Positions 1,209-18,549 of a stretch of DNA of 29,982 nt are shown one piece after another. The stretch lies in assembly GCA_049510745.1 (NCBI GenBank), contig JBEKYR010000055.1, forward strand, positions 1 through 29,982. Reading direction: 5' to 3'. The DNA comes from Verrucomicrobiota bacterium. Its GTDB lineage: Bacteria; Verrucomicrobiota; Verrucomicrobiia; Limisphaerales; Palsa-1400. The notes under the pieces were generated by a model. The model saw only the letters and a program-made list of their open reading frames with translations. It ran no database searches and was not told where the DNA came from. The position numbers were made by a program, and so were the translations under genes. Numbering within the stretch: position 1 is the first letter of the stretch; every line of letters begins with the position of its first letter.

Positions 1209-3659
1209 TTGCCAAGCTTTCGAGTTTGCGATTTCCCATTTACGAGGGAAAATGGACTCCTGAAATTTGACGAAACATCGAAGCTCTTTGAAGTCTCCGT
1301 CCGCGAATTGGCCGAGACCGACGGCTCCAGGCGCATCGGCTTCGAGCGCGGCGAGGGCTGGCATCGCCTCGGACTGGGCGCCGAATTGCACGCCCGCGTC
1401 CTCCGCGCCCGATGCCTGGCCCGCCCCGGCTATCGCCGCGAGGTCCACCTCCAATCCCGCTGGCCCGTGGAAGATTGGACGGCCCTGATCACCGGCCGCC
1501 TGGACGGCTGCGTGCAGGACCCCGCCGGCTCCTGGTTGATCGAAGAATTCAAATCCGCCTACCTCCCCTCCGCCGACGCCCGCCGCGCCGACGCCGCCTT
1601 TGACCGCCATCAACGCCAGCTTCTTCTCTATTGCCATCTCTGGCGCCGCTTGGGCCACGCGCCCGTCTCCGGCTCGCTCGTTTATCTGGACCTCGCCACC
1701 GCGGAGGAATTCTCCGTCGCCGTCCCCTATGACGAAGCCGCCCTGGACGCCGAACTGCGCCGCCGCCTTGCCCAACTGCTGGCGATTTGGAAGGCCGAAG
1801 CAAAACTCCGCCAACAAAAGGCCGCCGCCGCCCGCGCCCTCCCCTTTCCCCACGATCAGGCCCGCCCCGGCCAGAAAATCATGATCGACGCCGTGCGCCA
1901 AACGCTGGACGCCGGCGACAATCTGCTCGCCGAGGCCCCCACCGGATCGGGCAAAACGGCCGCCACTCTTTTCCCCGCCCTGGCTCACGGCCTGGCCAAC
2001 GGGCGTCAGGTCGTGTTTCTGACTTCAAAGACTCTCCAGCAGAAAATGGCCGTCTCCGTCTTGCGCGCCTTGAATCGCGACGGCGCCTTCCGCACCGCCC
2101 ACATCCGCGCCAAGGAGAAAATGTGCGCCAACGACCGCGTCCTCTGTCACGAAGATTTTTGCCCCTATGCCAGGGACTACCCCGGCAAAATGGAAAAATC
2201 CCAACTCCTCAACCGCCTCCGCGAGGCGCATCCGCACTTCGATCCGGACGCTGTTTTCGCCGCGGCCAAGCGCGGGCAAGTCTGCCCCTTCGAGGTGCAA
2301 TTGGAGCTGGCCCGCCGCGCCGACGCCCTCGTGGCCGATTACAATTACGTCTTCGACCCCGGCGCCGCCTTGGGCCATCTGGACCGCGAGGGCCTGGCCT
2401 CGGCCATCCTTTTGGTGGACGAAGCCCACAATCTGCCCGACCGCGCCCGCCAAATCTTTTCGCCCGAGCTGCTGGAGGAAACGTTTCGGAACGTGGCCGG
2501 ACGGATCTTGCTGCAATCGGGCGAGTTGTTCGAGTCGCTTTCCCGCATCGTGGACGACGCGGCCGCGCTGCTCCGGGAAACCGCGCGGGCGCTCCCCGAA
2601 ACCGAGGCCATCGCCGAACTCCAACCGCCGGCGTCCCCGCTGCGCGATCTGTGGAAGGAATGGGAACCGCAATTTGTCCGGTACCTTTCCTGGAAACGCG
2701 AGGTCAAACTGGCCCTTCCCGAAGACTCGATTGTGGACCTCCATTTCGCCTGGCAGCGCTTCATGGCCATTCTCAATTTGTTTGGTCCGGGCTTCGCCTG
2801 CGTCGTGGAGAAACGCGCTGCCGGCGTCCGCCTCGCCCTCGTCTGCCTCGATCCGGCCCGCGCCCTCGCGCCCGTCTTTCGCGCGGCATCATCGACTATT
2901 CTCTTTTCCGCCACACTCTCCCCCCTCGACGTCACCCGCCGCCTGCTCGGCCTGGAGAAGGAGCGCACCCGCTCCCTGGCGTTGCCGCCGCCTTTCCCGC
3001 CGGAGAACCGCAAAGTGATGATCCTGCCGCAAGTGCAAACGACCTTCGCCGCGCGCGCCCGGCACTTCGGAACCATCGCCACCCTGATCGCCCGCATGGC
3101 CGGGGCGCAAGGCGGCAACGTCCTGGTTCTATTCCCCAGCTACCAATTTCTCCAGCAAGTGGCCGAAAAAATGCCCCCGCTCCGCTCCGCCTTCGCCGTC
3201 CAGCGGCCGGGTCTCGGCGAACAGGAACGCGAAGCCATCTTCCAATCCCTCGCTTCCGCCCCGCCGGCGGGGATGGTGCTCTTTGCTGTCTTGGGCGGGA
3301 TGTATGCCGAGGGCGTCGATTATCCCGGTGAACTTCTCGGCGGCGTCTATATTGTTTCGCCCGCCCTGCCCCAGGTTTCTTTCGAACGCGAACTCTTGCG
3401 CCGCTATTTCGACGAAACCGAGCAAGCCGGCTTCGAATACGCCTATTTGCAGCCGGGCATGACCCGTGTCATCCAGGCCGCCGGCCGCTTGATTCGCAGT
3501 GAAACCGACCGCGGCGTCATCGCCCTCCTCTGCCAGCGGTTCCTCCAGGAACCCTACGCCAGCCATCTGCCCCGCGATTGGTACCGCGACTCCCCCTTGG
3601 AATTGGTGGCCCGTTCCCCCGCCGCCGAAATCCAAAAATTCCTCAATTCCGCGCGATAA
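1209..3659 (+). CDS. DinG/XPD (Rad3-like) FeS helicase with N-terminal PD-(D/E)XK (RecB/Cas4-like) nuclease domain; start uncertain (possibly CTG 1260)
   Basis: Nuclease motifs GRLDG...IEEFKS...QLLLY; Walker A APTGSGKT; four Cys (KMC, LC, FCPY, VCPF); DEAHN; SATL; LFPSY; EGVD; QAAGRLIRSETDRG. Confidence 0.92.
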   Translation: MPSFRVCDFPFTRENGLLKFDETSKLFEVSVRELAETDGSRRIGFERGEGWHRLGLGAELHARVLRARCLARPGYRREVHLQSRWPVEDWTALITGRLDGCVQDPAGSWLIEEFKSAYLPSADARRADAAFDRHQRQLLLYCHLWRRLGHAPVSGSLVYLDLATAEEFSVAVPYDEAALDAELRRRLAQLLAIWKAEAKLRQQKAAAARALPFPHDQARPGQKIMIDAVRQTLDAGDNLLAEAPTGSGKTAATLFPALAHGLANGRQVVFLTSKTLQQKMAVSVLRALNRDGAFRTAHIRAKEKMCANDRVLCHEDFCPYARDYPGKMEKSQLLNRLREAHPHFDPDAVFAAAKRGQVCPFEVQLELARRADALVADYNYVFDPGAALGHLDREGLASAILLVDEAHNLPDRARQIFSPELLEETFRNVAGRILLQSGELFESLSRIVDDAAALLRETARALPETEAIAELQPPASPLRDLWKEWEPQFVRYLSWKREVKLALPEDSIVDLHFAWQRFMAILNLFGPGFACVVEKRAAGVRLALVCLDPARALAPVFRAASSTILFSATLSPLDVTRRLLGLEKERTRSLALPPPFPPENRKVMILPQVQTTFAARARHFGTIATLIARMAGAQGGNVLVLFPSYQFLQQVAEKMPPLRSAFAVQRPGLGEQEREAIFQSLASAPPAGMVLFAVLGGMYAEGVDYPGELLGGVYIVSPALPQVSFERELLRRYFDETEQAGFEYAYLQPGMTRVIQAAGRLIRSETDRGVIALLCQRFLQEPYASHLPRDWYRDSPLELVARSPAAEIQKFLNSAR

Positions 3660-11310: not shown

Positions 11311-11657
11311 TGGCGGTCCAACGCGGCGAGATTTATTTGGTCACCCTGAATCCGGCGCAGGGGCGGGAGCAATCCGGGCGGCGTCCCGTTTTGGTGTTAT
11401 CCGTTGACGCCATCAATCGGCTGCCACTGGTCGTTACGGTGGTTGTTGGAACGAAAGGCGAAAATGTGACGCGCGACTACCCAACGAATGTGCGTGTTTC
11501 TCCAGCCGAAAGCGGCCTTCCGATGGAAACAGTCTTCCTTTGCTTCCAGATCCGTTCGCTCGATCCCAGCCGCTTTGGCGGCCAAGCCGCCGGAAGGCTT
11601 TCCGGGGCTGTAATGGAAAGGATCGAAAGCGCCCTGCGTCATTGTCTTGGACTTTAA
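11310..11657 (+). CDS. mazF: PemK/MazF family endoribonuclease toxin (115 aa)
   Basis: MAVQRGEIYLVTLNPAQGREQSGRRPVLVLS...SGLP...CFQIRSLDPSRF...LGL matches the PemK/MazF pattern. Confidence 0.92.
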   Translation: MAVQRGEIYLVTLNPAQGREQSGRRPVLVLSVDAINRLPLVVTVVVGTKGENVTRDYPTNVRVSPAESGLPMETVFLCFQIRSLDPSRFGGQAAGRLSGAVMERIESALRHCLGL

Positions 11658-11751
11658 AACCGAAGCAGAGATTTGGAGTCACATCCAAATACTCAACAAT
11701 TACTCGGGTTTTCGATTTACGAGCGGTTCCTGGCTTGCCAAGTTGTCCGCC

Positions 11752-12369
11752 ATGCCGGCGAGCGAGAAAATGCGGCTGTTTGTGGCGGTCTTCCCGCCGG
11801 CGCAGGTCGTCGAACGTTTGACGGACGCGATACGGCGCGTGGCCGGCGGTCTTTCGCCAAGGGCGGTGGCCTGGACCTCGCCGGAACAGATTCATTTGAC
11901 CCTGAATTTCCTGGGGAATACCGAACGCGAAACGGTGCCGGAGCTTGAAAGGGTGTTGGACGGAGTTTGCCGCACGGGGGCATCCCATGTTTTGCGGGCG
12001 CGCGGTCTGGGATGTTTTCCGAATCCGGGCCGGCCCCGGATCATTTGGGCGGGATTGGAGGATCCGCCGCGCGCTCTGGCGGCGCTGAAGGAAAAGCTGG
12101 ATGACGGTTTAACCAGGCTCGGTTATGTGCCGGAGGATAGAGCCTTCCATCCGCACCTATCACTGGGCCGTGTGAAGGAATTGCATGGAGGCGACCGCCA
12201 GCATCTGGCCCAGTCCCTGCGGGAACTGAGCGACACGGATTTCGGCCGATGGACCGTGGAAGGGGTGGACTTGATGCGAAGTGAGTTGTCGCCGAGCGGA
12301 GCGCGCTATTCCGTCGTAAAGTCGTTCTTGCTGGGCGGAGAAACTCAGGCTGGTTTCACTGCGGCGTGA
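11752..12369 (+). CDS. thpR: RNA 2',3'-cyclic phosphodiesterase (2H phosphoesterase, LigT/ThpR)
   Basis: MRLFVAV, two HxT/S motifs (HLTLNFLG, HLSLGRV), GCFP..RPRIIWAG, SELSPSGARY. Start at 11752 or 11770. Confidence 0.92.
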   Translation: MPASEKMRLFVAVFPPAQVVERLTDAIRRVAGGLSPRAVAWTSPEQIHLTLNFLGNTERETVPELERVLDGVCRTGASHVLRARGLGCFPNPGRPRIIWAGLEDPPRALAALKEKLDDGLTRLGYVPEDRAFHPHLSLGRVKELHGGDRQHLAQSLRELSDTDFGRWTVEGVDLMRSELSPSGARYSVVKSFLLGGETQAGFTAA

Positions 12370-13660
12370 TCGTGATGGTGTGGGTCACAGGCACGAAGGC
12401 GGCTTTGATGGCCGCGACCAGGGCGGCCCGTTCTTGCTCGCTGTCGGCCACGGTTTTTTCCATGTCGGCTTTCCCCTCCTTGCCGTGAAAGAGTTCCTTC
12501 ACCTGTTTTGTTTCGTAGGCCTGTTTCCTGGCCACGGCTTCATCGACCGCGGCGAAGGCGTCGGAAAACGCGTTGACTTCAAAATCGGCCGCGAGGTTGA
12601 CGCCGCGCGTGAGTTGCCCGGCGGAATAATTGCGGGAGACGGCGCCCCAGGTGATCTGATAGCTCTTTGCCTTGCCGCCTTTGACCCGCAACATCAGGCG
12701 GTTGAATTCCTGGTTAAACGGCACCAACGCCATGCCGGAACGGACGCTGTCGTCATTGTCCGCGGCGCCGGCGGCGCAAAAGGGATAGCGCGCGCTCTTG
12801 ATCGTCAACGCGCCGTCCTGAAACGACACCAATTCGTGCCCCTCGGAAACGGATGCCTTCTTCCGAGCCAGATCAACGGTAAAGGCGCCGATGTCGCCCG
12901 GAACGTCGAGCGCCTTGAGGAACGCGTAGGCCATGACCAGATGTCCGGCCCAGCGGGGGTGGACGGAGTCCTTCCCGGCCAGGGCGTAATTGGTTCCGTA
13001 CGATTGCCGGGCACGGTATTGGGCCAGGTACATGTCCCGGAAAACATCGGCGAAGCCAGTATGTTCGGCCTCGGCCAGTTCGATGTCGATATCGCGCAGC
13101 GTGCAAAGGTTGGCGTTTCTGTCTTCCGGTGTGCCCTGGACCCAGTTCCACCCCGGAGTTCCCAAGCCCATGCAACCGGGCGACCCCACCACCGTGCGCG
13201 TCCCGGCGCTTTTGAAGGCGAGAATGACGGCCATCATGTTCGACGCATACGCGTCGCCGATGGCGGGCTCATACGGCCGGTAATGGTGATCGTTCATCCC
13301 GTAACAGGTCGTGGCGACGGTCGGGTGAAAGCGGAGCACGTCGTTGGTCATGCGGTTGAGGAAGCCGGCGGCTTGCTCGCCGCTCCAGCCGAATTGCCGC
13401 GTGCTGATGTTCAACTCCGGCCACGCCACCGTCAGGTAAGTTTCCATGATGCGCGAATACCGTCTCTGTTCGGTGATGGAATCGCCGCAGATTGCCAGAC
13501 GATCGCCTGGCCGCAGAACGGGGCCTTTGGGTTGGGGCGTTTTGGGCAGGTACACCCGGGCGAAATAAGGGTCGTTCTTCGGCGTGGTGTCAGTCGAGGC
13601 CGCCAGCGCGGTCCCGCACAGGGACAAAAGAACTGCGGCGGCGAAAAATTTCAATTTCAT
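12356..13660 (-). CDS. Secreted SGNH/GDSL hydrolase family protein
   Basis: Signal peptide; GDSIT block I, GWSGE, YGMND, DSVHP catalytic DxxH. Confidence 0.9.
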   Translation of the reverse strand: MKLKFFAAAVLLSLCGTALAASTDTTPKNDPYFARVYLPKTPQPKGPVLRPGDRLAICGDSITEQRRYSRIMETYLTVAWPELNISTRQFGWSGEQAAGFLNRMTNDVLRFHPTVATTCYGMNDHHYRPYEPAIGDAYASNMMAVILAFKSAGTRTVVGSPGCMGLGTPGWNWVQGTPEDRNANLCTLRDIDIELAEAEHTGFADVFRDMYLAQYRARQSYGTNYALAGKDSVHPRWAGHLVMAYAFLKALDVPGDIGAFTVDLARKKASVSEGHELVSFQDGALTIKSARYPFCAAGAADNDDSVRSGMALVPFNQEFNRLMLRVKGGKAKSYQITWGAVSRNYSAGQLTRGVNLAADFEVNAFSDAFAAVDEAVARKQAYETKQVKELFHGKEGKADMEKTVADSEQERAALVAAIKAAFVPVTHTITITPQ

Positions 13661-13705: not shown

Positions 13706-16153
13706 TTACTCTGGCTTCGCGTCGAAGCTCCTCAACACCTTCTCGGCGAACTCTCGTTGTTCCGGGGGGAGACCGTCTAAAATCGCGCGTTCCTTGCCTT
13801 CCAGCACGGCACAAACCGGCTCGAGAAAATGGAGTGCTTCCCCAAGCTCCGGCCGCGGAGTCTCGGCAAGAATGCGCCACGCGGTTGGCCAGGCATCTTT
13901 CATTATGGGTGACGTTATGCTGTTAAGGAAGCGGAGCGCGGCCGCACACGCCAATTCGTTCGGCGCAGAGTTCAAAACGCCGCCGAGTTTCGTTACGACA
14001 GCCTTCGCCCCGGCATAATCCTTGCGAAGCCATAATATGCCGTATGCAATTTTGGCGGCATGAACCACCAAATCATCCGCCAGTACTGCAAGGTCAATCA
14101 CCTTGAGAAAATCCGCCACGGCTGCTAAGCTCTTATCTTGCTGGTGGAATGTAAGCCCGCGGTTGAACGAAGCCCAGGCGAGGTTTTCCTTGGACACACC
14201 CATCATCTCAATCACGTCCGTGCAATCCGAAATCGCTCCTTGCGTGTCGTTCAGCTTTCCCTTGGCAACGCTGCGGTTGATCAACGCGAGCGCGACCAGT
14301 TCCCTGGGTGCAGCCTCCAGTTCAATCACAGTGGTACAGTCAGAAATCGCGCCCTGCACATCGCCGGACAGACCCTTGGCAACGCCACGGTTGAACAACG
14401 CGAGCGCGACCAGTTTCTTTGGTGCGTCCTCCAGTTTAATCACCGCTGTACAGTCAGAAATCGCTCCGTGATTATCGCCCAACTGTCCCTTGGCAACGCC
14501 TCGGATTCCCAACGCGAGCGCGACCAGTTTCTTTGGTGCATCCTCCAGTTTAATCACGGCTGTACAGTCAGAAATCGCTCCGTGATTACCGCCCAACTGC
14601 CACTTGGCAAAGCCGCGTTTGACTAATGCTTTGACATCCCTTGGGTGCTTGGCAATGACCTCATCCAACGACTGAATGGCGCGTTGATAATCATCATGTT
14701 CAAAAAGCCAATCTCCGAGGCCCGTGTATGCCTGCATTTCATCCAAATCAGACCTTTCTTTGCCTCCACTGGACAAGTCAGCATACGCCAGCGCAGCCTC
14801 TCGAAAGTCCGCTTTCAGCCATTGCTCAGTGCAAAGCTCGGTGGCCAGACGCTCATGCCGGGTGCCTTTGAGTGAGGCCGCAAAGTATTCAGCCGTGGTG
14901 GCGGATTCCCTGAGAACTTGCTCCGCGCCGCCCTGCCCAGGCGATGCCAGGCTGCGCAAAGTGACGAGCCTTTCCTCCTCCTCGAACCAAACGCGGAGCA
15001 CCTCGACAAACACTTCGATGCGCCGGCGGTTCTGGCCAAGGTATCGCATTTGATACCAAACGGCGAACAGCTTGTCCGGCACGGTGTAGTTCGCCGTCCG
15101 GCCTTTGCCGCCACCGAGCACTTCGACGAATTGCGCCTCTTTCAAACGCCCGAGCTGGGTGGTGATCGCGTTGAGTGGCAACCGGGTTCGCGCAACAAGG
15201 TCGGTCGGTTGGGCGGTGCCGCCTTTCTCCATCAACGCGTGGATGATCAGCCTCTGCTGCGGCGGAAGGTTTTCGATCTCGTGCTTTAGCAAAGGCGTCA
15301 GCTCGTCCACCAGCCGTCGCAGACATTGCACGATGGTCGTCATCTGCCGCTGGGTCAACAACTCGTAAAGCATGAGGATCAGCCGCGGATTACCCCCCGA
15401 GAGGAGGACGATGGCGCGGACTTTTGATTGATGGCTGGGAAGCTCCTTGAGAAATTCGTGGTTGCCATCGAACTCGGCCCGAAGCCTCAGCAGTTCGAAG
15501 ACCTCTTCCGCCGTCAGCCTCTCCAGCGGCACCTGGCCGAAATAGTTAAAGAAGGCCTCGTCGTAGCTCTTAAGCGAATCGAACAGATGCACCGCGCTGC
15601 CGATAACCATCATAAACGGATCGCTCATCAGCAGCCGCCGAAAAGTGCCCTTCATTTGGTCATCGAGGCACTCCCCCAGCAACTGATTCAGGTTCTCGAT
15701 GAAGAGAATCAGGCGCTTGCCCTGCTGGCGCGTGATTTCGCGCAAGCCGGTCAGGGCAAGTTGCAGGCTTTGTTCTTCGTTTGTTTCCGCCTCCACCTTT
15801 TCCAGCCAGCCTGGCGCCTGCGAAATGCCCTGCTTCACCAGCAACTGAAGTGTGGCGGCCATCAGGTCTCGCAACGAGGAGATGTTGAATTGTTCTTCCG
15901 GAAAAACGACCGGGATCCAGGCCGCCGTCAGCTTGGGATCCTGCCTGATGCGCAAGGCGACCATTTGAATGACGGTGGACTTGCCCGAACCGCGCGGCCC
16001 GGTGATGACAAAGCTGGAGAGGGTGCCGGAATGAATCTGCTTGCGCAGGGACGTCAACAAGTATTCCACCGTGTGCCCGCGAGCCGCGAAAGTTGCCTCC
16101 AACTCGTGATCCGGCATTTCGGCTGGCGTGTATTTGTGTGCGACAAGGCTCAT
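13706..16153 (-). CDS. STAND-like P-loop NTPase with wHTH and TPR repeats (815 aa from ATG 16153)
   Basis: Walker A GPRGSGKST, degenerate Walker B LILFIENL, GGNPR (GxP-type motif), MarR-like wHTH and 38-aa TPR-like repeats. ATGA overlap with the upstream gene's stop. Confidence 0.85.
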   Translation of the reverse strand: MSLVAHKYTPAEMPDHELEATFAARGHTVEYLLTSLRKQIHSGTLSSFVITGPRGSGKSTVIQMVALRIRQDPKLTAAWIPVVFPEEQFNISSLRDLMAATLQLLVKQGISQAPGWLEKVEAETNEEQSLQLALTGLREITRQQGKRLILFIENLNQLLGECLDDQMKGTFRRLLMSDPFMMVIGSAVHLFDSLKSYDEAFFNYFGQVPLERLTAEEVFELLRLRAEFDGNHEFLKELPSHQSKVRAIVLLSGGNPRLILMLYELLTQRQMTTIVQCLRRLVDELTPLLKHEIENLPPQQRLIIHALMEKGGTAQPTDLVARTRLPLNAITTQLGRLKEAQFVEVLGGGKGRTANYTVPDKLFAVWYQMRYLGQNRRRIEVFVEVLRVWFEEEERLVTLRSLASPGQGGAEQVLRESATTAEYFAASLKGTRHERLATELCTEQWLKADFREAALAYADLSSGGKERSDLDEMQAYTGLGDWLFEHDDYQRAIQSLDEVIAKHPRDVKALVKRGFAKWQLGGNHGAISDCTAVIKLEDAPKKLVALALGIRGVAKGQLGDNHGAISDCTAVIKLEDAPKKLVALALFNRGVAKGLSGDVQGAISDCTTVIELEAAPRELVALALINRSVAKGKLNDTQGAISDCTDVIEMMGVSKENLAWASFNRGLTFHQQDKSLAAVADFLKVIDLAVLADDLVVHAAKIAYGILWLRKDYAGAKAVVTKLGGVLNSAPNELACAAALRFLNSITSPIMKDAWPTAWRILAETPRPELGEALHFLEPVCAVLEGKERAILDGLPPEQREFAEKVLRSFDAKPE
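14130..14625 (-). repeat. Intragenic 114-bp tandem repeats (about 4 units) encoding 38-aa TPR-like motifs
   Basis: GAISDCT recurs four times at 38-aa spacing; 14396-14496 and 14510-14610 differ at only 5 of 101 nt. Confidence 0.92.
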
Positions 16154-17415
16154 GACTTCCGGGCTTGTGGAGTTTTCGCCTTCGCGCCCGGCGCCGGATA
16201 CCAGCGCCGCCACCAATCTTGCATGACCTTGAGCCGGAAGTGGAACTCGTTGGTGTCCGTATCCAGGCGCAAGTACCACTCGTATTCCAGGTCTGCCATC
16301 AGTTCATCAAACGCTTGATCGCTGGCGGCCTTGCCTCGTTCCTTGCGGTAGATGTCGAAAAGAGCGGGCCGGGAAATGCGCCCCTGGCTGGCGACCGCCC
16401 GAAGAACCGCCACGGCCGCCTTCTCCCCGGTCTTGCCGTAACGCTGCAACCGGCTGCTGTAGTGAGTGAAATAGTGACGGCAAGTGGGCCCGAGCACGCG
16501 GTCTCTGTAAATGCGCTCCACATCAGCGACCGTGAGACCAGTCCGTTGGGCCGGCGGCAACTGGGCGATCTGCGACATGAAGATGTGAATGAAGTAGGGA
16601 ACGGGCGCGCCGATCAGCTCGAACAGCCTGCCCAGAATCGCATCGTTGCAGTTGACTGAACAGGACTGAGCCAGATCGCCGGCCAGTTTGTGCGCCGTTG
16701 TACCGTCGAGCGGCTCAACGGTCAATCGCGCGAAGTCCACCAATTTATCGGCCGCCCCCAGCTTGCGGAGAATCTGGTCAATGCCGACGCTTCCCGCGAC
16801 GATAAATCTGTGGCGCCGGAGCACATCCTTTTGTTCCAGCCGGACTGATCGGAACCATGCCAAAAAATCGCGTGCGACGGATTCGCCTTGTTTTTCGATG
16901 AGGCGGTCGAGCATCGCCGGGAACTCGTCGAAGAGGAAGATGATTGTCTTGTCCGCCTTCTCCAACTCTGCCAGCATCCGTTTCGCTGCTTCGCGCCAAT
17001 CCTCCTTGATGTCCTCTTTGAATTTGATCTTCGCTCCCTCGAATTCGGCTTCGTCGAAATTCGCCTTTACCCACCCCGCAACAGCCTTGGGCAGGCGCTT
17101 TGCCTTGCTTAACAAAGACTGCACGAAGTCGTGTCTTAAAAGTTCGCGGGTGACACGCCAGACAAATTCTTCGGGTGAATCCACATCTTCCAACTCAAAC
17201 GAAAGAGGCAGAAAACCGGTTCGGGGTCGCAGCAGCACGTGCCGCATCACTCCGCTCTTGCCAAATCGCCGTGGGGCAAGCAGCAGAATATTGTTTCCCT
17301 CAATCAGCCGCCAAAGATGGTCAATGAAATCCTCGCGCCCGTAGAGTTCGTCAGGGTCGGGAATCTGTCCAACAAGGCTTCTCGTTTGTCGTGGGCCATT
17401 GATTTCGTCATTCAT
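16150..17415 (-). CDS. P-loop ATPase (archaeal-ATPase/STAND-like) with probable C-terminal wHTH
   Basis: LYGRE, Walker A APRRFGKS, Walker B IIFLFDEFP, sensor-like VAGSVG, PVPYFIHI and a C-terminal ...LKVMQDWWRRWY. Confidence 0.87.
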   Translation of the reverse strand: MNDEINGPRQTRSLVGQIPDPDELYGREDFIDHLWRLIEGNNILLLAPRRFGKSGVMRHVLLRPRTGFLPLSFELEDVDSPEEFVWRVTRELLRHDFVQSLLSKAKRLPKAVAGWVKANFDEAEFEGAKIKFKEDIKEDWREAAKRMLAELEKADKTIIFLFDEFPAMLDRLIEKQGESVARDFLAWFRSVRLEQKDVLRRHRFIVAGSVGIDQILRKLGAADKLVDFARLTVEPLDGTTAHKLAGDLAQSCSVNCNDAILGRLFELIGAPVPYFIHIFMSQIAQLPPAQRTGLTVADVERIYRDRVLGPTCRHYFTHYSSRLQRYGKTGEKAAVAVLRAVASQGRISRPALFDIYRKERGKAASDQAFDELMADLEYEWYLRLDTDTNEFHFRLKVMQDWWRRWYPAPGAKAKTPQARKS

Positions 17416-17417
17416 AA

Positions 17418-17492
17418 CAACATAAATGTTGCTCTAATTCAGTTTTAAAGCAACAAAAATGTTGTTAAATCTTTCGTATCTGCAACATGTTG
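17418..17492. promoter_or_regulatory. Three CAACA...TGTTG palindromic boxes in the AT-rich leader of the ATPase operon
   Basis: CAACATAAATGTTG (17418-17431), CAACAAAAATGTTG (17451-17464), CAACATGTTG (17483-17492). Confidence 0.65.
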
Positions 17493-17542: not shown

Positions 17543-18430
17543 TCAACGCGCGGGCAACGAGCTGGTTTCCAATAGGCGGCGGAAGGTCTGGTGTGTTTGC
17601 AGGACTTCGTCGTGCGGCAGGGCGCTGAAAAGGAAAACCAGACGGTTGTTTCGGAGGTCGGCGGGCGTGGCGTTGGTTTCGTTCGCGCTGAAGTAGGGCA
17701 CGCCGCTGCCTTGCAACGCCGTCATCAGCCCTTCCGTTTCATCCTTCGTGCCGCCGTGCTCGGTGTAGAGATCAATGAAACGCCCCGGATGATGGTCGAA
17801 CCAGACGGCGAACCGCTCCGTTTTCGCATAGAGGGCATCGAACAGCCAGACTTCGCGGATGTGGGCGGTCAATCCGCCGCGGGCCAAGATCGCCGACATG
17901 ACTTCGTAGCCGCCGCTGTGCCCGCAAAGAATAATGCGTCCGAGCCGGGCACTGTCAATTAAACCCCGCTGGCGCAACGCCTCGACGGCCTCGGCCATGA
18001 ACCGTTGGAAGCCGCCGGCGTCCTCGAGTTTGCCGCCGAAGGAGTCCGAGGCGTCGAACGGACCTTGCGGGACGATGAGGATGGCGTTGCGCCGGCTGGC
18101 GGTGAATTGTCCAGGCAATTGGTACTTTTCGAGCACGTTGGTGACATGGTTCCCCCAGCCGTGGAAATGGACGACGAAATCCACTTTGCGGCCCGGACGG
18201 AAACCGTTGGGAACAAAGAGCGCAACGTGGCTGTCTTGATAGTGTTCGGCGGCGGAAAAAAATTTGTCCTTGTATTGGTGGCCTTCGGCGCGAAGCGGGT
18301 GGGGGAAGGGGGCGGAGACGAAGTTGGTGATGATCAGGCAGCCCGGCGAGTTGGTGTCTTCGGCCCGGTCGCCGGCCATCAGGCGCGCGGCGGCCAGGAA
18401 ACAGAGCAACGGCAAAAGGATTTTCTTCAT
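17543..18430 (-). CDS. Secreted alpha/beta-hydrolase-fold protein (295 aa)
   Basis: Signal peptide MKKILLPLLCFL; VVHFHGW oxyanion region, nucleophile elbow GHSGG, LFDALY and a C-terminal His (PHDEV). Confidence 0.75.
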   Translation of the reverse strand: MKKILLPLLCFLAAARLMAGDRAEDTNSPGCLIITNFVSAPFPHPLRAEGHQYKDKFFSAAEHYQDSHVALFVPNGFRPGRKVDFVVHFHGWGNHVTNVLEKYQLPGQFTASRRNAILIVPQGPFDASDSFGGKLEDAGGFQRFMAEAVEALRQRGLIDSARLGRIILCGHSGGYEVMSAILARGGLTAHIREVWLFDALYAKTERFAVWFDHHPGRFIDLYTEHGGTKDETEGLMTALQGSGVPYFSANETNATPADLRNNRLVFLFSALPHDEVLQTHQTFRRLLETSSLPAR

Positions 18431-18549
18431 GCGCGCGGAAACGATGCCGGACGGCGCGCGGATTGTGAAGGAATTATCGCCACCGGCGGGCTGGCGTTGC
18501 CGAAAGTGACAGCCAGAAACCGGACGTGGCTGGTCCGCCGCGGACACCA

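Follow-up and report, generated by a model that had tools for sequence, protein, structure and literature searches.

The closest published idea to the locus described here is nSTAND2 (Kaur et al. 2021, PMC8195603), which the available parts of that paper describe as a mobile two-gene operon encoding two STAND NTPases that are predicted to form a hetero-multimer. An arginine finger is present in both subunits; in one of them the NTP-binding motifs are eroded, and this subunit carries a GT4 or HEPN effector. In the accessible sections of Lee et al. (2026, PMC13581612), who classify 589 STAND clades, the anti-phage STANDs Avs/AVAST and bNACHT are each encoded by one gene, and most carry an effector at the N terminus. 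Cooperation of an active ORC/STAND ATPase with a divergent one is described, in the portions of the sources at hand, for the LypAB CARD-NLR pair (PMC13236601) and for the BREX BrxB/BrxC iSTAND pair (PMC12839542).

The window (the whole stretch of DNA that was analysed, 29,982 nucleotides) contains two coupled genes on the reverse strand. Gene A (16150..17415) encodes a 421-residue STAND/ORC-type ATPase with an NTPase, a helical domain and an acidic winged helix. Gene B (13706..16153) encodes 815 residues comprising an NTPase with a Walker B of EN, a basic MarR/ArsR-like winged helix, an arm, a TPR array and a helical cap. The initial annotation had described two genes joined by an ATGA overlap behind an AT-rich leader, and both features were borne out. 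The stop codon of A overlaps the start ATG of B (at 16153) on the reverse strand at 16150..16153, consistent with translational coupling, and the GC content of the leader was 34.6%. A spacing of -4 was the most frequent one between A and B (17/66 loci). The cassette had also been called less GC-rich than its surroundings; the value was indeed lower than the genome median (57.3% versus 60.6%), but the drop was mild, corresponding to the 14th percentile of 1,474 windows. Each gene was present in one copy in the source genome. Frameshifts in several long-read genomes were possibly assembly errors and were excluded from the evidence.

The upstream flank is a putative hydrolase gene with no Pfam match and an uncertain start (17543..18448, reverse strand), and the downstream flank is a GDSL-family hydrolase gene (12356..13660, reverse strand). 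These hydrolases had been regarded as unrelated, a view that did not hold, as the two genes adjoin in six family relatives, where they are ∼40 to 180 bases apart and represent the empty site. Because the flanks adjoin in these relatives without the cassette, it was read as an insertion, and on this comparison it is a clean one between the two host genes. No terminal repeat or target duplication was seen by eye and no shared 3' end was detected. No accompanying recombinase, transposase or integrase was found; transposase domains were present near 4 of 64 loci and belonged to differing families.

Gene A has an intact Walker A (APRRFGKS) and Walker B (FLFDE), as had been claimed, together with a GxP motif (GAPVPY), and the DE of Walker B was kept in 63/63 A sequences. 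Pfam gave a sub-threshold match only, and a PDB sequence search with gene A alone gave no match. A structure model (pLDDT 84) contained the winged helix that had been thought probable for this protein. The top fold matches were the archaeal ATPases SSO1545 (PDB 2fna; Z score of 27.3, rmsd of 3.6, 333 aligned) and PAB2304 (2qen; Z score of 26.4, rmsd of 3.4, 334 aligned), spanning the whole A chain, with a Z score of 20.1 for the next-best fold; NLRs and Orc1/Cdc6 followed, and a resemblance to TnsC was also detected. A deep profile of A agreed with the fold, indicating the SSO1545/PAB2304 type with E values of 4e-10 and 8e-9. Both archaeal proteins are of the PF01637 type, which we take to be the MNS clade of STANDs. 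A shares their NTPase-helical-winged helix layout but has only 16 to 18% identity to them and differs from them in its coupling to another ATPase, which bears a sensor array, and in having an operator. No sensor or effector domain was detected in gene A, and one A homolog carries an AbiEi fusion. Gene A is predicted to encode the catalytic subunit of the pair.

The motifs of gene B (GPRGSGKST, LFIEN and GGNPR), followed by a MarR-like winged helix, TPRs and a helical tail, were present as initially listed. Pfam matches were to AAA_16, nSTAND1, MarR_2 (E value of 5e-4) and TPR; the nSTAND1 match (PF20703) scored 33.7 against a cut-off of 27.1, covered half of the model and was exceeded by the AAA_16 score. 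A PDB sequence search with B alone produced TPR matches only, and the best Foldseek match was PH0952 (6mfv; E value of 8e-9), with a low TM-score of 0.23. This protein had been considered degenerate. The Walker B (LFIEN) does lack the Asp, but Walker A was intact (GK[ST]) in 108/108 B sequences, all collected beside A, and Walker B was EN in 66, DN in 41 and DS in 1. As Walker A is intact throughout and Walker B is fixed as [ED]N, B is, as judged by conservation, not a dead NTPase, and [ED]N is a conserved family motif and not a sign of decay. A comparison of the A and B profiles was weak (probability of 8.5%, E value of 0.004), and it is plausible that the two genes arose by duplication of one ancestor. 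As modelled, both proteins have the features of NTPases of the STAND/ORC-Cdc6 clade, namely, an AAA+ core, a helical domain with a GxP motif and a winged helix.

A scan of species genomes with A identified 79 loci. Four weak non-family matches and six loci in which the contig ended in A were dropped, leaving 69 evaluable loci from many phyla, of which 67 had B directly downstream of A. Profile searches of four phylum samples detected A or a relative in 5/301, 20/133, 6/401 and 17/301 genomes (the 20/133 tally takes in one unpublished genome); A was present in 5/301 genomes of its own phylum and in 5/41 relatives, with the source genome counted. B was next to A in 35/38 matches of at least 200 bits with downstream DNA, a set that overlaps the first by at least 3 loci and in which the 3 exceptions were partial A matches inside longer ORFs. 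Weak matches of <120 bits had B beside them in 0/10 cases. Searching from B, A was found upstream at 32 of 34 evaluable places. In trees of 54 pairs, 22/27 supported splits of A recurred in the B tree and 1 conflicted, and the tree mixed phyla. These counts and the congruent trees bore out conservation of the pair and showed, at the level of sequence comparison, that A and B are co-inherited and travel together, as a unit of 4 kb, among distantly related bacteria. The family is large, with 1,743 clusters at 50% identity (E values up to 1e-10, solo relatives included). A occurred without B at two loci (L071 and L077), and B occurred without A at two others from different clades (L178 and L181). 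An insertion sequence lies inside A at L034, and an IS5 gene abuts a 5'-truncated A at L090. No relatives of A were found in phage records and viral contigs. No third gene was conserved beside the pair and no neighbor family recurred in a conserved position.

A complex of A (residues 10 to 408) and B (residues 1 to 470) was modelled. The A-B model had a score of 0.71, compared with 0.00 for the best of three controls; this mark is reached by 116/157 solved complexes and 2/215 mismatched pairs, a calibration roughly valid for the alignments used. Model runs agreed in at least 88% of contacts, and the partner pLDDT was at least 79. The pass may be due to the likeness of the pair to solved AAA+/ORC heteromers. 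In the modelled interface, the A pocket (R50, S54, E76, D77 and D163) faces helix 166-177 of B, and Asp77 of A touches Arg172 of B (codon at 15638..15640, reverse strand), the predicted arginine finger for the A active site according to conservation and the complex model. A contact of this kind is the trans arginine finger arrangement of AAA+ proteins. Arg172 was present in 108/108 paired B proteins, while the position was Lys in 2/2 solo B proteins (two cases only), one of which has a DD Walker B. Conserved arginines were also present in A (Arg189 in 97% and Arg192 in 99%; n = 100); neither is part of the modelled interface, and both could act on the adjoining subunit. The model and its controls thus supported the hetero-oligomer that had been proposed, and A and B probably work as one machine. 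The arrangement differs from the plain sensor/helper NLR-type pair first suggested, as B appears to activate A via an arginine finger.

Two CAACA-N4-TGTTG palindromes, features absent from the initial annotation, were detected over the promoter in the leader. Box 1 is at 17451..17464, and box 2 (17418..17431) is 33 bp from box 1 and ends 2 bases before the ATG of A. The paired box was found only at its own promoter in the 5.6-Mb genome; the three other exact single boxes were no more than a simple base count would predict by chance. In 40/44 near-clade loci, two boxes matching at ≥8/10 bases were present 31 to 35 bp apart, and in many near-clade relatives box 1 fills the spacer between a TTGACA -35 element and a -10 element. 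A sigma-70 scan of the window detected no promoter. Other clades had different palindromes and different B recognition helices, suggesting that operator and helix co-vary between clades; this covariation is confounded by shared descent and was not taken as proof. The winged helix of B (approximately residues 296 to 360; 15074..15268, reverse strand), the predicted operator-binding domain, had a basic helix and wing in 94% of sequences (n = 105), and its profile matched MarR, ArsR and MJ223 regulators; the helix and wing of A were acidic in 82% (n = 100), and the winged helix of A gave no clear regulator match. Upstream boxes were retained at both solo B loci and upstream repeats were retained, at least in part, at both solo A loci; distant solo ATPase relatives likewise had upstream repeats. 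The boxes are probably bound by the winged helix of B, and we infer autoregulation in which B would repress the A-B operon. In type II toxin-antitoxin operons, palindromes over the promoter mediate autorepression; at the A-B locus the operator is conserved, and its binding by B is a prediction.

The TPRs of B derive from a 114-bp tandem repeat (14259..14622, reverse strand; 3.2 copies, 85% matches) encoding 38-residue units. The lengths of B proteins ranged from 532 to 1398 residues and often differed by 38 residues, and close homologs had 87 to 98% identity in the NTPase and winged helix versus 57 to 72% in the repeats. The groove-facing positions, presumably 2, 5, 6, 9 and 13 in the usual TPR numbering, had an entropy of 2.4 to 3.4 bits (87 repeats). 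The pN/pS ratio was 0.76 at groove positions versus 0.24 at core positions, the core value being biased low by the search pattern; evolution of the groove thus appeared relaxed, with a ratio not clearly above 1. One clade has HEAT repeats in place of TPRs. Among the best five Pfam matches per protein, 61 B C-termini had TPR, HEAT or no family and no enzyme or effector domain. Overall, the array varies in copy number and groove residues in the manner of a sensor. The claim that the pair has no effector also stood, with no effector domain in either protein and no recurring third gene.

Comparison with the described systems indicated partial likeness to several of them. Like nSTAND2, as presented in the available text (PMC8195603), the locus is a mobile STAND pair with conserved arginines in both proteins (R172 of B in 108/108, R189 and R192 of A in 97% and 99%), although a finger role was modelled for B only. 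Unlike nSTAND2, the pair has no eroded subunit (Walker A GK[ST] in 108/108 B, DE in 63/63 A), no GT4 or HEPN effector among the best five Pfam matches per protein in 61 B C-termini and no nSTAND2 Pfam match, and B has a winged helix and a TPR/HEAT array; the features that define nSTAND2 in that text are thus not those of the A-B pair. B resembles Avs and bNACHT, as outlined in the accessible sections of PMC13581612, in having an NTPase, a winged helix and a C-terminal TPR sensor, but B starts at the NTPase, and the locus differs in having two different ATPases, an operator and no effector. The NOD, arm and TPR order of B is that of PH0952 and MalT in the parts of PMC6468293 available. The DNA-binding domain of those proteins is a separate terminal domain, whereas the STAND winged helix of B itself looks DNA-binding and B, as modelled, would require a partner ATPase. 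LypAB and BrxB/BrxC, in the available text of the cited papers, differ from the pair in carrying proteases, PglZ or methylases and in having inactive subunits without Walker motifs.

The best explanation of the locus is a mobile, self-repressing, two-subunit STAND switch that most likely acts as an anti-invader (abortive or growth-arrest) module, a reading to which we assign a probability of roughly 0.45. The architecture in this explanation is very probably correct; its weak points are the immune role and the output. The winged helix of B would repress the operon. B would bind nucleotide but hydrolyze it poorly, as its catalytic Glu is replaced by Asn. In the model, B docks at the nucleotide pocket of A and supplies Arg172 in trans, so that A would hydrolyze ATP only with B. 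A foreign protein on the TPR/HEAT array would then open B, free the operator and drive formation of A-B oligomers, in which Arg189 and Arg192 of A may complete the site of the following B subunit. The assembly would itself be the output, through ATP drain or DNA coating, and an oligomer with a fired A ATPase would arrest the cell. A more specific version is an effector-less immune receptor of two STAND ATPases, with B as receptor, repressor and arginine-finger activator and an ATP-burning or DNA-coating heteropolymer as the weapon, amplified by derepression; this version is doubtful. The switch explanation is favored by the pairing counts and tree congruence, the patchy distribution, the complex score, the Arg172 pattern, the paired boxes, the charges of the two winged helices, the variable groove, the HEAT repeats of one clade and the plasmid copies in defence islands. 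Against it are the lack of an effector domain in 61 B C-termini, of a recurring neighbor and of a clear excess of defence-type neighbors, a groove pN/pS of 0.76, the solo A genes at two loci with upstream repeats, and the chance that the complex pass comes from likeness to solved heteromers. If the switch is defensive, it would represent a STAND receptor functioning with no enzyme fused to it, with sensing tied to its own transcription.

A selfish cassette of the toxin-antitoxin kind would account for coupled genes with a palindromic operator over the promoter: an autorepressed two-gene operon would be kept since its loss or imbalance harms the cell, with no anti-invader benefit. Addiction is also consistent with the lack of a regulon in the host genome, with insertions among housekeeping genes at unrelated sites and with the upstream repeats of distant solo ATPase relatives. 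It is nevertheless unlikely, as both genes were found alone or broken (the two solo A, two solo B and two IS-associated loci) and as addiction would not call for a large array of fast-evolving repeats. The match of B to PH0952, a STAND-TPR protein called a predicted transcription factor in the available text of PMC6468293, and the likeness of its winged helix to MarR, ArsR and MJ223 regulators favor a module for signalling or transcription that resembles MalT/PH0952, in which B would sense a host ligand and regulate genes while A tunes B. The restriction of the paired box to its own promoter, the chance-level number of single boxes, the lack of a conserved target gene and the patchy, horizontally spread distribution argue against such a module, which we consider quite improbable. 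Finally, the folds shared with Orc1/Cdc6 and TnsC and the clean insertion would suit a mobility or replication helper (TnsC/IstB/Orc1-like), with the boxes as an origin or element end. A transposase or integrase does not travel with the cassette (transposase domains at 4/64 loci, from differing families), neither a shared 3' end nor terminal repeats or a target duplication were seen, and the boxes are in promoter position; there is very little chance that this reading is correct. The remaining probability falls to other outputs. Exact mutations can be aimed at the operator, at Arg172 and at both Walker B motifs, and the pair would offer a handle on uncharacterized archaeal-type ATPases and on the origin of paired NLR-like receptors.

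PADLOC and NCBIfam searches detected no system above threshold for A and B, only weak P-loop matches, and none for 37 A representatives, save the AbiEi fusion, or for distant pairs; the named-system check thus gave no system-level match, and the cassette is an unnamed paired-STAND variant in the libraries tested. No published description of the A-B pair was found in the literature searched, mostly papers outside subscription, although the 589-clade tables of PMC13581612 may list these proteins. No paired effector-less system was seen in the accessible text sections of that paper, and a term search of its smaller supplements gave no match. Neighborhoods were scanned for 407 of 457 crudely called ORFs (≤650 residues) within 5 kb of 64 loci, and most neighbors were housekeeping genes. 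By reading of the matches, a defence- or toxin-type neighbor was present at 9/64 loci (L008, L015, L020, L054, L059, L065, L067, L077 and L078; a Sir2 gene at L030 was left out), compared with 1/20 random 10-kb windows in a control that was small, drawn from the source genome only and scored with stricter cut-offs; the expected defence-island enrichment was not clearly seen. Distant plasmid copies were located in defence islands: one lies beside Qat in Moraxella, and a Segatella copy lies behind a WYL gene and near DUF262 genes.

A third palindrome, CAACATGTTG, which has no spacer, was located in the leader of the ATPase gene A (window positions 17483-17492), 19 bases upstream of the operator palindrome box 1, and similar sequences were detected only at loci L007 and L008. 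Short repeats or palindromes of their own were frequent directly upstream of distant solo ATPase relatives (L083-L085, L105, L106, L136 and L157-L166), all of which lacked the TPR-containing partner, B. These elements suggested that single ATPase genes under self-regulation constitute a wider class.

Both solo B genes L178:1476 and L181:1461 (minus strand, positions on the reverse complement) had Lys in place of Arg172, the predicted arginine finger, and retained the upstream boxes. One 1.9-Mb genome, G349, carried a solo B gene and two A-B pairs of different clades. Differences at the N-terminus were detected among A homologs, with P0339 (612 aa) having an AbiEi antitoxin-like domain and P0329, P0340 and P0369 having unannotated extensions of 115-120 residues. 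At L154-L156, where B was absent, an A-like protein was represented by its C-terminal two thirds, which lay behind a different N-terminus within ORFs of 466-501 residues.

Genes for a dUTPase, a PRTase-like protein, an Sll1717-like ATPase, a CARF-like protein and an N6-methylase were found 3' of the Moraxella pair (L086:11376-16899). This set, common to two plasmids, looks like a defence cluster distinct from the pair. Within the window itself, the genes for a DinG-like helicase (1209-3659) and a LigT-like 2H phosphoesterase (11647-12369) were ordinary.
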